Assembly: GCF_022846255.1 (NCBI RefSeq)
Contig: NZ_AP025682.1
Length of the DNA: 64,000 nucleotides
From: Escherichia coli
GTDB taxonomy: Bacteria; Pseudomonadota; Gammaproteobacteria; Enterobacterales; Enterobacteriaceae
Direction: 5' to 3' (one strand)
The notes below the pieces were generated by a model. The model saw nothing but the letters and a program-made list of their open reading frames with translations. It had not been told where the DNA came from and ran no database searches. A program made the position numbers and the translations under genes. Shown in pieces: positions 20,835 through 52,049 of the stretch (positions are counted from its first letter, which is position 1; each line of letters opens with the position of its first letter).

Positions 20835-20972
20835 TGTCATTGCTATACCATAGCTTGGAGAGGATTATTGGAATGGTAGAAGAGTCATTATGAGATAATA
20901 TTATTATCTGAGCTGGCCCCCTGAAATACCAGACAGTAGATGTATCTTAAAATAAGAGATAGGCTTGGATAT

Positions 20973-21368
20973 ATGTCTAACACTAGTTCTAATTTTGAGA
21001 TGGCTGGCGTTTTGTTAGGAAAAGAGGTGCGTAAACGTAAAACACCTCAGGAAAAAATCGCAATTATTCAACAGACTATGGAGCCGGGCATGATGGTGTC
21101 CCACGTGGCGCGTTTGCATGGAATTCAGCCCAGTCTGTTGTTTAAGTGGAAGAAACAATACCAGGAAGGAAGCCTCACTGCTGTGGCTGCCGGTGAAGAC
21201 GTTGTTCCTGCTTCTGAACTGACCGCTGCAATAAAGCAGATTAATCAGCTTCAGCGTTTACTGGGTAAGAAAACCATGGAAGTTGAGATCCTCAAAGAAG
21301 CGGTGGAGTATGCACAATCGCGAAAATGGATAGCGCATGTGCCCTTGTTACCTTCGGACAAGGAATAG
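20973..21368 (+). CDS. IS2-group transposase OrfA
   Basis: HTH OrfA homolog of IS2 InsC ([24 protein letters not shown]...). Confidence 0.75.
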
Positions 21369-22207
21369 CCCCGGTAAGCCGTGTTCTGGGCGTGTCACGT
21401 GCGCAGTTAACATTACGGATGAAGGCATCTGATAACAAGCCAGATAAACGGCGCCAGAGGCGCGATGAGGCTGCGGATGCAGAAGTCTTATCGCGCATCC
21501 TGGATATCATTGGCGATATGCCAGCATACGGGTATCGCCGTGTCTGGGCGATACTCAGGCGGCAGTCCCGAAATGAAGGACTACCGTTCGTGAATGCAAA
21601 GCGTGTTTACCGGATAATGAGCGAAAATAGTCTGTTGTTGTTACATGACAAACCATCACGACGGCAGCGGGAACATAAAGGCCGAATATCGGTGAAGGAA
21701 AGCGACCAGCGTTGGTGTTCCGATGGCTTTGAGTTCGGTTGCGATGATGGCGAAAAACTGCGTGTTACGTTCGTCCTGGACTGTTGCGATCGTGAAGCCA
21801 TAGACTGGGTCGCAAGCACGGGAGGTTACGATAAAGCGACAGTGCAGGATGTGATGTTAGGAGCGATAGAAAAACGCTTTGGCGATAAAGTACCGGAACA
21901 GTCCATCCAGTGGCTGACAGATAACGGTTCAGCGTACAGAGCGCATGAAACACGGCAGTTCGCCAGAGAGCTGAATCTGAAGCCCTGCACAACAGCAATC
22001 AGTAGCCCTCAGAGTAATGGAATGGCAGAACGGTTCGTGAAAACGATGAAGGAAGACTACATCGCGTTCATGCCGAAACCGAATGTAAGAACGGCATTGC
22101 ATAACCTTGCAGTGGCGATCGAGCATTACAATGAAAACCATCCGCATAGTGCGTTGGGTTATCGCTCTCCGCGAGAATATCGACGTCAGCGGGTAATGTT
22201 AACTTAA
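21326..22207 (+). CDS. IS2-group transposase OrfB (DDE catalytic)
   Basis: 293-aa ORF homologous to IS2 InsD; overlaps orfA in the -1 frame. Confidence 0.75.
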
Positions 22208-22311
22208 GATACAACCCCTGTCTGGAAATAAGGGGGCAAGAACACCGTCTCAGATCTGTTTTCAATGAAAACAGATCATTCTGGAACTACTCGTCCCAGT
22301 TACTTGAAGCG

Positions 22312-23397
22312 ATGTCCATTCTTCGTCCGAACGAAAATCTTGCAGCAGCTCTCAGCGATGATTCAGAGTTCAGCAATAGCATGCAGTTCAGGTTAATCCT
22401 GGCAAAGACTGTTGATGCAGGAGCCCCGGTTCCAGCGGATCTGGCTCTGACGTGGGTGACAAACCATATTGAATACTCATTACGAACCCCCGCCCGCCGC
22501 TGTGCGAAAGAATTTGCTGCACTATTTAAACGGCGTTACACCCTTAAATACGGTGAAGGGATGGTAGTGAAGCCGAATAAAGCGCGTCTGCGTTTAGATT
22601 ACACGCCTGCAAGTCCCAGTTTGAGAGGTATTCGGCTTCCTGTTCCTGACTTGCCTGATCCAAGTGCATTGAAAGGCCCTGTTCAGAAGCTTATGACTCT
22701 TGCTGATATATGCACAGATGAACTGGATGCTTACAGTCGTTACCTTGGTAGAAAAGGCACTTCAGCAAATGATACCGCTGCAATTTTGTTGCTGCCTTCA
22801 GAAATCGTTAACGAAAGCGCAGATAAATTATTAAGTGCATTCAAACGCTGGGCTGATGACGCGATCCTCAGTAAGGGGGGAGTAGTTTCAGTTGCTGACT
22901 TCTGGTCACACATGAATGCTACCTGTCCGGCAAAGATCAACAAAAAAGAGGCCGACTTGATGCAGGCCTTTGCACAGAAAATGGGGTACTGCCTGGCTCC
23001 TGACCCCTATTACCACCACGTAAAAGCAAATGTCGATGGTGTTCTTGTTTTATTCCCTGCTGGTGAAAGTGGCCGCTTCTCTCCTTCTCCTGAATTTATC
23101 ACAGCTGTATTGACGCTCCGATTAGGTTCGGTAGTCGCCTTGATTGACAATTCTTTCGATCAAGCCGAACAGAAAGTGCTTGAGAATGCCATCAACAACA
23201 ATGTCAGCTTCAGCGATGATGAAAAGCGCTCTCTGCACGCATATTTAACGTGGCAGCTTCATACCCCGGCGAATATGACGGGAATGAAAAGCCGGATTGA
23301 ATTACTCGGTGCAGCGGAAAAATCAGCTGTGGGTAAGGTTATCGTTAGTGTCGCTTGCTCTGACGGCAGAATTACGCCTGCCGAAATCAAACTGTAG
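22312..23397 (+). pseudogene. TerB-domain protein gene remnant, 3'-truncated by the IS911-like element
   Basis: 361-aa ORF; C-terminal TerB-like repeats (VALIDNSFDQAEQKVL; VSVACSDGRITPAEI); TAG stop 23395-23397 overlaps the IS left end; frame stays open upstream into the preceding IS, so the 5' end may also be lost. Confidence 0.5.
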
Positions 23398-23464
23398 TGG
23401 CACACTGAATTTGGCCACCTGAACAGAGGTGATATGCTCACCTCAGAACAACACAGGTGCTCCA

Positions 23465-23767
23465 ATGAAAAAAAGAAATTTCAGCGCAGAGTTTAAACGC
23501 GAATCCGCTCAACTGGTTGTTGACCAGAACTACACGGTGGCAGATGCTGCCAAAGCTATGGATATCGGCCTTTCCACAATGACAAGATGGGTCAAACAAC
23601 TGCGTGATGAGCGTCAGGGCAAAACACCAAAAGCCTCTCCGATAACACCAGAACAAATCGAAATACGTGAGCTGAGGAAAAAGCTACAACGCATTGAAAT
23701 GGACAATGAAATATTAAAAAAGGCTACCGCGCTCTTGATGTCAGACTCCCTGAACAGTTCTCGATAA
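23465..23767 (+). CDS. IS911-like transposase OrfA
   Basis: HTH/leucine-zipper OrfA. Confidence 0.8.
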
Positions 23768-23793
23768 TCGGGAAACTCAGAGCGCATTATCCT

Positions 23794-49814: not shown

Positions 49815-49913
49815 ATTTGTTACTCGCCCGGTTTTATCGTTAGGGTAATGTAATATTTCGAGGGAGGAAGTGTTATTCTGTATTTTGTTTTCGTTATTAT
49901 GAAAATTTGCATA

Positions 49914-49929
49914 TGTGATGTTTATCACA
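49914..49929. promoter_or_regulatory. consensus CRP site TGTGA-N6-TCACA
   Basis: TGTGATGTTTATCACA seen directly, ~100 bp upstream of the C-S lyase start on the minus strand (class I position). Confidence 0.5.
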
Positions 49930-50295
49930 AAGATGTTAACTATCTGTCAATAAAAAGACTCCAGCAAATGTAAACGTTTTACATCGCTTAAGCCTATGGA
50001 ATTTACATAAAAAAAGGGCGTGCCGAGTCTTTCGACCCAATCATTATCTCGGTAACTCCATTCACAAGAGCAGGAAATAACCTCTTCAACAAATAACAGA
50101 CTGATGCCTGCGAGCGCGCTCCCCAGGTTTCTGGGCTGAAAGTACCGCCGCACTCGTTTAACGCGGAACAGTCTGTGTTGGCGGTTTAATGGTGGATGTT
50201 GCTGTAGACCACAACTGATGAGGCAACGGAGTTTACCGTGATGATTCCTATTTATCATTTTCTGGTCAGTGCCGCGATTCTGGTATTTGTAGTGG

Positions 50296-51063
50296 TCAAG
50301 TAATACTGGCCACGGTTTTACAGTAAAAATGGTACCTGTTCTCGGACTCTTCCGGAGTCAACCCACCGTTATAATGGTGAGGTCTGATACTGTTGTAGTA
50401 GTTCAATATGTAATCATTAATTTGCTGCCGGGCCTCGTCCTTGTCGACGTAACCATTCGCTGGCACCCATTCTGTTTTCAGACTGCGGAAGAAGCGTTCC
50501 ATTGGGCTATTATCCCAGCAGTTTCCCCGCCGACTGACACTTTGCTTTATTCTGTAACGCCAGAGAATTTGTTGATATTTCAGGCCTGTATACTGGCTTC
50601 CCTGGTCGCTATGGAACATAACATCATGTGGTTGACCACGCGTCTCATAGGCCATCCGCAGGGCATCGCTTATCAGTGCAGTATCGGCATGTGCGGACAG
50701 ACTCCAGCCGATAACCCTGCGGGCAAAAAGATCCATCACAACCGCCAGATAGCACCAGCAATTTCCGGCCCAGATATAGGTAATATCTCCACACCATACC
50801 TGGTCTGGCTCGGGGACAGCGAACTGGCGCCCGAGCAGATTCGGCAAGCAGGTATGCTCCTGACGGGCATTTTTGTACTGATGTTTTCCGGGCTGACAAC
50901 TGCTCAGATTCAGATGTTTCATCAGCCGCCCGGCACGGTAACGGCTCATCGGGACGCCGTTTTGGGTCAGCATGTCAGCCAGCGTGCGCGCCCCCGCAGA
51001 GCCCCGGCTTTGGTTCCACACCCGGCGTATTTCACTGCACAACCTGACATGCACCGGATTCAC
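50296..51063 (-). CDS. IS3-family transposase OrfB
   Basis: 255-aa DDE ORF ([11 protein letters not shown]...HSDQGSQYT...NSPMERFF). Confidence 0.8.
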
Positions 51064-51161
51064 CGTATCGCGTCGTTTTTGCCAGTACCGGTAACTGCTG
51101 CGGTGTATTCCCAGAGCAGAACACAGACTGACAACGGTGTGGCTGCCACTGAGTCTGGCAA

Positions 51162-51473
51162 CTATCGTGAACCGTTCAGCGAGTCGGACATCAAGAGTGC
51201 AGTAGCCTTTTTTAATATCGTATTTTGTTCCTCCAGGCGGCGAACCTGCTTTTCCAGCTCGCGGATACGTTGCTGGTCTGGAGTAATCGGTGTGGCAGAG
51301 GGGGCAATCCCCTGGCGCTCTCGTCTGAGCTGACGTACCCAGCTCTCAAGAGTGGTAGAGCCGACATTCATCGATTCACTGGCTTGTCGATATGAGTAGC
51401 CCTTATCAACAATCAGTTGCGCACATTCCAGTCTGAACTCGGGGGTGAAAGTACGTTTGGTTTTCTTGTTCAT
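51162..51473 (-). CDS. IS3-family transposase OrfA
   Basis: HTH OrfA starting MNKKTKRTF...; ends [18 protein letters not shown]. Confidence 0.8.
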
Positions 51474-52049
51474 TAAGTCACCTGTTTTGTGTTGAGGTGA
51501 GAATATCACCTTTAATCAGGTGGCCAAACTTACTGTGCCACTACAAATGTATACGAATTGTCATATTCAGACATTTGGGACTTAGATTAGTTGATAGGCA
51601 AAGTATTATAAATCATATTATACTTGTCTGCTTATACGTTGTTGTAAGTATAACATTACTCTATAAGGCGTTCTGACGCTAGGCGCGTTTTTTTATGTTT
51701 ACCCATATTTGGGTAAGAATTATTGTCGATAATTTTATTTTCCCATTTATATAATACTGTACGGCCGACGCCAATGCTCCAGGTGATGTCACTGGCTGAT
51801 CTCGTCGTGTACAAGCACCATGACAGCCCGATGTATCGTTTCTGGTTCAAAGAGAGCATCACGCTTGGTCTTACTGTTAAATATACGCTGTTTGTCGGAA
51901 TAAGGTTCATTAATTCAGCATGTGAGTGCATTATTATAAGGATAATCCAGAGTTCTGCTGGTAAATACCAAGCAGTTGCGATGGTTAAAATAATGCTCAA
52001 CTCTACACTATTTGCAAAGCAGATAGTGTGCTAAGCAAAATAAAAAACA

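Follow-up and report, generated by a model that had tools for sequence, protein, structure and literature searches.

What does it mean when complete insertion sequences (IS) lie in a genomic island and none of them is flanked by a target-site duplication (TSD)? The question is raised by a window of 64,000 nucleotides of Escherichia coli DNA (contig NZ_AP025682.1; all positions below are those of this window, and + is the strand shown), in which the interval 20909-51545 carries several complete elements of the IS3 family. The original prediction for this interval was that it had been assembled and reshaped by IS-mediated deletion and recombination, and had not been acquired in one piece. Our analysis supports this view: TSDs are absent, synteny with related islands breaks at IS ends, and the modules joined here occur separately elsewhere. 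We consider it highly probable that the interval belongs to the interior of a mosaic island of the GI-pheV type, and that its complete IS3-family elements are scars of rearrangement, not simple insertions.

The chromosomal position can be deduced from the right end of the window. Its sole tRNA gene is tRNA-Phe (61022-61097, - strand), and alignment with annotated E. coli chromosomes places yqgA and speC to the right of it; in the core DNA, the identity to E. coli strain PK-F-10122 is 97.1%. Since tRNA-Phe stands beside yqgA and speC, everything left of position 61100 or so belongs to the pheV island. Judged by these alignments, then, positions 1-61100 represent an island of an E. coli-type chromosome at its pheV locus, with a left end beyond the window. 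Within the window, no further copy of the tRNA-Phe 3' end turned up as a distal repeat (attR, 19-23 bp), with up to three mismatches allowed, and the island exceeds the left edge; nor does the window contain a second tRNA-Phe or tRNA-Arg att repeat. The reference collection for matches consisted of 5,426 complete E. coli genomes, and modules were resolved by local alignment to selected loci (given L numbers below). The arrangement as a whole has no counterpart among these genomes.

The insertion sequences and their ends

How many complete elements are there, and where exactly do they end? Each IS was compared with thousands of E. coli matches; its ends were set where hundreds of independent copies cease to match, and the terminal inverted repeats were checked. 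The bounds of the interval proved to be the outer termini of its first and last IS. The first is ISEc48 (20909-22244, + strand, 1336 bp), with intact orfA and orfB. It is followed by an IS911-like element (23393-24641, + strand, 1249 bp), which the Prokaryotic Genome Annotation Pipeline (PGAP) labels only as 'IS3 family', by ISEc16 (42321-43564, - strand, 1244 bp) and by an ISEc31-like element (50288-51545, - strand, 1258 bp); all three are intact as well. The last of these is 91% identical to copies labelled ISEc31 by PGAP; with an unnamed IS3-family copy in strain RM14723 it shares 99.9% identity.

Together the four elements occupy 16.6% of the interval. Five complete IS copies had been predicted there, and this count has to be corrected. 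No fifth complete IS exists between 20909 and 51545, the rest being collinear with annotated relatives in which there is no other transposase gene. The fifth full-length IS of the window is an IS2-like element outside the interval (3725-5049, + strand), which has complete ends and a split, decayed orfA, and it is probably the one that had been counted. Three open reading frames (ORFs) that might be taken for mobile-element genes were identified otherwise: a 405-codon ORF at 25759-26976 encodes an integrase and is not part of an IS, a 361-codon ORF at 22312-23397 belongs to a fragment of a TerB-family gene, and a 406-codon ORF at 52050-53270, suspected to be an integrase gene, encodes a CynX-like MFS transporter.

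All five elements belong to the IS3 family. Each has matching imperfect left and right inverted repeats (IRL and IRR) of the form 5'-TG...CA-3' (the IS2-type left end being TA/TG). Overlapping orfA and orfB in the -1 arrangement are present in ISEc48, the IS911-like element, ISEc16 and the ISEc31-like element, while orfA of the IS2-like element is split. In copies at least 99% identical to these elements, PGAP annotates a transposase of the IS3 family that is made by programmed frameshift.

Absence of target-site duplications

The usual length of a TSD in the IS3 family is 3-5 bp. Do any of these elements have one? On the + strand, the left and right flanks read ATGGC and AACAT for the IS2-like element (no 5-bp TSD), AAC and AAT for the IS911-like element (no 3-bp TSD), ACT and CGG for ISEc16 (no TSD) and ATT and AAT for the ISEc31-like element (no TSD of 3-4 bp). 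The flanks of ISEc48, GATAATATTATTATC on the left and CCGTCTCAGATCTGT on the right, are unrelated over 15 nt on each side, and neither of them is found elsewhere in the window. The longest end-anchored match between flanks is 0-1 nt for each of the five IS. Thus the claim that complete copies here lack a TSD holds for all five once their ends are mapped to the base, and the end mapping and flank comparison that had been suggested as a check brought no hidden TSDs to light.

Shifted boundaries do not alter this picture. When the ends were allowed to move by up to 2 nt in either direction, and repeats of up to 20 nt were considered, only chance-level matches emerged; a match of at least 3 nt occurs in 2.6% of random position pairs at exact boundaries and in 31% with this slack. 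The 4-nt repeat 'CAAA', which can be obtained for the IS911-like element at shifted ends, is at chance level and also contradicts the ends fixed by the control copies, and we rejected it.

The same mapped ends were applied to other E. coli copies as positive controls. All three gene-interrupting copies of the IS911-like element have a 3-bp TSD (TTC, TTC and AAT), and TSDs of 3-4 bp (GATG, AGG and GAAC) flank three of four copies of the ISEc31-like element. For the IS2-like element, one of two controls, the copy in L005, has a 5-bp TSD (CCAAT). ISEc48 gives a perfect 15-bp TSD in five of six independent copies (L009, L010, L020, L021 and L022), and excision of the element with one 15-bp repeat restores the interrupted reading frames. 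In the case of ISEc16, apparent extensions of some matches by 6-7 bp were traced to one shared microcin-island locus and to partial chance similarity, and they were discarded as TSD candidates. Whether a TSD is present depends on the insertion event and not on the element; the lack of one therefore points to later rearrangement and does not speak against membership in the IS3 family.

The behaviour of ISEc48 is the most notable side result. An element of the IS3 family with IS2-like ends that makes 15-bp TSDs is unexpected, given how long these duplications are. The copies lie in different genes, and their targets show no consensus. We found no report of 15-bp TSDs in the IS3 family in the literature, where two papers mention ISEc48, each only in passing; this search did not cover the records of ISfinder. 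If ISfinder has no record of them yet, the ISEc48 duplications could be of interest to specialists in transposition.

Breakpoints of synteny at IS termini

If the IS elements mark rearrangements, where do related islands cease to be collinear with the window? Wherever a reference exists, homology with a related island stops or resumes at the very base that adjoins an IS terminus. The IS911-like element is the case in which both sides can be read against a single relative, the argW island of strain AHB24 (L004). At the left end, AHB24 has ...gaaatcaaac followed by AGCTTGAG, and the window has ...gaaatcaaac followed by TGTAGTGG. At the right end, AHB24 reads ...CACTGG and then aatatcatt, and the window resumes with aatatcatt directly after the IS. 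Measured against the AHB24 island, the element thus takes the place of 10,124 bp (L004 26234-36357).

Immediately to the left of it lies an internal fragment of a TerB-family gene (22245-23392, + strand), which corresponds to L004 25086-26233 at 99.6% identity and is cut on both sides by IS termini, by ISEc48 on the left and by the IS911-like element on the right. On its right, ISEc48 directly adjoins the interior of the TerB gene, at AHB24 base 25086; on its left lies non-coding DNA that follows an amidohydrolase gene. At the other end of the interval, the ISEc31-like element cuts an ept-like (phosphoethanolamine transferase) pseudogene, the last retained piece of which is 50198-50287 (+ strand); in strain Santai the same pseudogene runs on (CATGGTG...) exactly where the element starts in the window. 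An IS that interrupts ept in PK-F-10122 was considered as a possible relative of this insertion and dismissed, being 92% identical, located 400 bp further along the gene and provided with a 4-bp TSD of its own. For the IS2-like element, the left flank agrees with that in the AHB24 argW island, and the right flank differs. Altogether the breakpoint coincides with the IS terminus to the base, with no TSD, at both ends of the IS911-like element, at the right end of ISEc48, at the right end of the IS2-like element and at the left end of the ISEc31-like element, and ISEc16 also belongs here. Synteny comparison with related islands had likewise been proposed as a check; made with the AHB24 and Santai islands, it gives breaks that fall on IS termini.

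Other seams carry stumps of IS elements. Two clusters of IS or gene remnants had been placed at 40301-40700 and 46480-46990; both are real, and their coordinates are better given as about 40230-40750 and 46478-47117. The first consists of a TnpB/InsQ remnant of the IS200/IS605 type (about 40230-40748, + strand), annotated in Santai as a frameshifted InsQ/TnpB pseudogene; two ORFs in it, 40301-40531 and 40571-40720, match Pfam PF07282 (the TnpB/Cas12f TNB domain). It forms the boundary between a metabolic module resembling KpLE2 and a porin module.

The second cluster begins with about 150 bp of an IS911-like orfA (46478-46629, - strand), which is 77-89% identical to 23489-23657 and inverted relative to it. 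Next to this lies the left end of an IS629/IS1203-like element, with the IRL and the start of orfA (46666-46768, + strand). Its outer end is again a synteny breakpoint, given that homology in other genomes starts at 46668. A psiE remnant, so annotated in Santai, follows at about 46984-47117 (+ strand). The fragments of TerB, ept, PTS EIIC and psiE are all pseudogenes cut by IS elements. The island joins modules of different origin end to end, and an IS or an IS stump is found at nearly every seam.

Age of the junctions

Were all of these scars made in the present island? Both ISEc16 junctions are common to nine complete genomes, and the left junction of the IS2-like element is common to AHB24. 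Because they are shared with other genomes, these joints are older than the present island: of the five scars, that of ISEc16 and the left joint of the IS2-like element were inherited ready-made with their modules. The junctions of ISEc48, the IS911-like element and the ISEc31-like element occur in no other complete genome, and the elements themselves are 99.5-99.9% identical to the E. coli control copies with which they were compared. To us these three joints look like recent, lineage-specific events.

Relatives of the island also provide a glimpse of recombination between IS elements. Strain NB4833 (L006, 24190-25446) has the same left junction as ISEc16 at 42321 and a different right flank. 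The first 230 bp or so of its IS are 100% identical to the ISEc16 of the window, and the remainder is 60-90% identical. This chimeric IS is a footprint of recombination between related IS3-family elements, and direct evidence that homologous recombination between IS elements operates in this island lineage. Further, in a microcin/DAHP-synthase island of other E. coli (L023, L024, L025 and L014), one left flank of ISEc16 is combined with three different right flanks; the element seems to be old and to have had its right end rearranged repeatedly.

Seams that carry no insertion sequence

Two seams are of another kind. The integrase-proximal end of an argW-type island (24642-27142, - strand) is 99.4% identical to AHB24 (L004 36358-38855) and contains a P4/IntS-like integrase gene (25759-26976, - strand). 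This gene is followed, at 27125-27140, by 15 of 16 nt of a tRNA-Arg 3' end. There, at 27132, the argW-type end cuts a PTS EIIC gene (ulaA/sgaT-like), which is left as a fragment (27132-27718, - strand), and the tRNA-Arg core and the PTS EIIC fragment are fused at their common microhomology CCCTGCAG. This joint looks like one of the integrase/att type and not of the IS type. The other seam lies at 54022 and shows no IS end and no att repeat.

How could the joint at 27125-27140 have been made? We keep integration at a secondary site as a reading because the joint falls within the tRNA-Arg 3'-end core. The left 27 kb would then be an argW-type island that integrated, via the CCCTGCAG core, into a pseudo-att site in the PTS EIIC gene of a resident GI-pheV, and that was subsequently trimmed by IS3-family elements. 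This is a tentative proposal, with a real chance of being right but falling somewhat short of an even one. Illegitimate recombination is a possible source of the same joint, as the other end of the insert lies beyond the window. If the proposal is true, one tRNA locus gathers islands that normally reside at other tRNA loci, through misfiring of an integrase followed by editing by IS elements.

How the scars may have arisen

The absence of TSDs and the position of the breakpoints are observations, from which we infer the route of recombination at each joint and the order of events. Each IS would first have inserted with a TSD, and one or both of the original flanks would later have been replaced. 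This may have occurred when two copies of one IS underwent homologous recombination of the RecA type, by which the intervening DNA would be deleted or exchanged and one IS left with mismatched half-TSDs. Alternatively, a transposase-linked deletion may have started at an IS end, of the kind that IEE promotes for IS3-family elements. Integration mediated by integrases probably contributed as well, as suggested by the argW-type att core at 27125-27140 and by the islet next to tRNA-Phe.

One may object that the IS elements are mere passengers: the TSD-less joints would mostly have been inherited within imported modules, and assembly would have been chiefly the work of integrases, in tandem or at secondary sites. 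Much in the preceding sections fits this objection, namely the ISEc16 junctions that are identical in nine other genomes, the IS2-like left junction in the AHB24 argW island, the att-type joint at 27125-27140, the presence of two P4-type integrase genes and the occurrence of the tRNA-Phe islet at pheU in strain CH4784. We nevertheless regard it as unlikely. The junctions of ISEc48, the IS911-like element and the ISEc31-like element are unique to this sequence and sit exactly at the breaks of AHB24- or Santai-type homology, which points to at least three lineage-specific events at IS ends, whereas an att-like core is present at one seam only.

An assembly artefact, in which repeated IS copies were joined to wrong flanks, would produce false junctions of just this appearance, and the three elements with unique junctions do invite the suspicion, being 99.5-99.9% identical to control copies, matching thousands of genome records and thus possibly being multi-copy in the source. 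It is a very improbable explanation, since the ISEc16 junctions are reproduced in nine independent complete genomes, and since the right flank of ISEc48 and both flanks of the IS911-like element are found, with order and orientation preserved, in one AHB24-type island, which fits a real deletion better than a random misjoin. Hardly any weight can be given to the idea that TSDs are present and were missed through wrongly set ends, or that they decayed by point mutation. The 'CAAA' obtained for the IS911-like element with 2 nt of slack could be cited in its favour, but a match of at least 3 nt is found with such slack in nearly a third of random pairs, as given above, and the same ends yield perfect TSDs in the control copies. 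Moreover, the flanks are at least 99% identical to relatives and come from DNA that is not adjacent there, so that mutational decay cannot explain the absence.

Several points do weigh against regarding the IS elements as scars of rearrangement. The seams at 27125-27140 and 54022 are without IS, so not all of the assembly was IS-mediated. The ISEc48, IS911-like and ISEc31-like junctions rest on this one assembly. None of three ISEc16 loci examined as controls has a TSD. AHB24, like Santai, is only a proxy for the ancestor, and the data do not distinguish between deletion, recombination between IS elements and events of the IEE type. With all this taken into account, the reading of the complete IS3-family elements as rearrangement scars in a mosaic island is still the one we hold to be highly probable.

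What is the use of such an exercise? It is a worked example, at the level of single bases, of how seams in a tRNA-associated island are marked by complete IS elements that have no TSD, and of how mapping of the seams recovers the modules and their origins. This is useful for annotation and leaves the knowledge of island evolution unchanged: the patching and trimming of such islands by IS elements is already well known and has been described for GI-pheV.

Modules of the island

The modules joined in this island are an argW-type island, a KpLE2-like sugar-acid/mtn region, a phage-type porin, an MFS-pepT module, an nhaC-malY-ept' module, a rare MFS/TetR pair and the tRNA-Phe islet. Elsewhere they are found separately, at argW (L004), pheU (L003), pheV (L001) and leuX (L005, L007) and on a phage-plasmid (L019).

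From the left, the window contains an argW-type segment (162-5056) that is 98.9% identical to the AHB24 argW island (L004) and includes the IS2-like element with its left junction. To the right of that element lies a stretch of low GC content (5050-11943, 32-39% GC), which aligned with none of the compared loci. We note in passing that a truncated sugar-kinase gene (4963-5508, - strand), a TPR-like ORF (8733-9800) and an ORF of 436 codons with no NCBIfam match (10429-11739) are found there. A sugar-acid operon follows (11944-20665), 86-87% identical to an operon near leuX (L005).

The segment from 27132 to 50287 is collinear with the GI-pheV of strain Santai (L001) at 99.3% identity, and it includes ISEc16 and all of the remnants. 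Within it, the KpLE2-like metabolic module (27644-40235, + strand) comprises sgcE'-sgcR-yjhIHGFU, a sugar transporter, an aldolase, mtnA and mtnK, shares 95% identity with the region near leuX in other strains (L007) and terminates at the TnpB remnant. It may be worth pointing out that this is a second copy, at 95% identity, of the KpLE2-type sgcE'-sgcR-yjhIHGFU-mtnAK region, which is normally near leuX; the copy at pheV is also present in Santai and eight other genomes. The OmpC-like porin module (40797-42320, + strand) is 95% identical to phage-plasmid p88_0502-1 (L019), and the homology ends at the ISEc16 terminus. An MFS transporter and pepT make up the next module (43565-46477, - strand), which terminates at the IS911/IS629 stumps. 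It is found only in nine Santai-type genomes, and the complete-genome collection offers no other native E. coli context for it.

Beyond the ISEc31-like element lies a module of about 2.5 kb (51546-54021), with a CynX-like MFS transporter gene (52050-53270) and a TetR regulator gene (53386-54036). It gave no megablast match among the 5,426 genomes, and by this measure it appears to be foreign to sequenced E. coli. The last module is the tRNA-Phe islet (54022-61097, - strand), which carries GntR, MFS, SDR and enolase-like genes, a P4-type integrase gene (59562-60824, - strand) and tRNA-Phe itself. Strain CH4784 has an islet at pheU (L003) to which positions 54022-61145 are 98.8% identical, and the integrase ORF aligns with annotated tyrosine-type recombinases adjoining tRNA-Phe in L001, L002 and L003.

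Comparison with known systems

Which of the known systems does this locus resemble? A composite transposon shares with it only the general feature that IS elements bracket segments of cargo, and we rejected this explanation. The bracketing IS elements differ (no two complete IS are the same element, identity being at most 67%, and only 65% between the IS911-like and ISEc31-like elements), and the outer flanks are without a TSD.

Islands of the tandem or secondary-site P4-integrase type (argW islands of the KpLE1/CPS-53 type, or CP4-like ones) are closer to what is seen at 27125-27140, with an integrase gene followed by the core of a tRNA 3' end and the joint inside that core (CCCTGCAG). They differ from the present case in that the core here is joined not to argW but to a PTS EIIC gene within a different island; as the other end of the inserted element lies beyond the window, its integration is only putative.

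Deletions linked to IS3-family elements, whether by recombination between IS elements or of the IEE/IS629 kind, offer a further parallel. IEE-dependent excision of IS629 is accompanied by adjacent deletions whose lengths lie between a few nucleotides and more than 40 kb, and IEE also promotes excision of other members of the IS3 family and of members of the IS1 and IS30 families (PMC9943667). The likeness consists in single copies of IS3-family elements without TSDs at the endpoints of deletions, for example that of 10.1 kb relative to AHB24. The difference is that the window has no iee gene.

The closest system is GI-pheV itself, described by Nhu et al. (PLoS Genet 2024, PMC11537424) as a mosaic of modules separated by IS elements that evolves via insertions, deletions and recombination. 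In that study, the P4-type integrase is the only conserved gene, deletions of whole modules are consistent with flanking IS elements, and many GI-pheV are without a distal direct repeat. Three features of GI-pheV are present here: location at the 3' end of pheV beside yqgA-speC, a P4-type integrase gene next to the tRNA gene, and a mosaic of modules separated by IS and other mobile-element sequences. There are also differences. A distal direct repeat is not seen within the window, beyond whose left edge the island continues, and the island contains an argW-type island end together with a tRNA-Phe islet that is otherwise seen at pheU. The cargo is one of metabolism and transport (sgc/yjh/mtn, pepT, nhaC), in contrast to the virulence modules pap, sat, iuc and flu of uropathogenic E. 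coli (UPEC) that are emphasised in the study. We conclude that the island is another member of the GI-pheV group, one whose cargo is unusual and largely metabolic and in which the end of an argW-type island is embedded.

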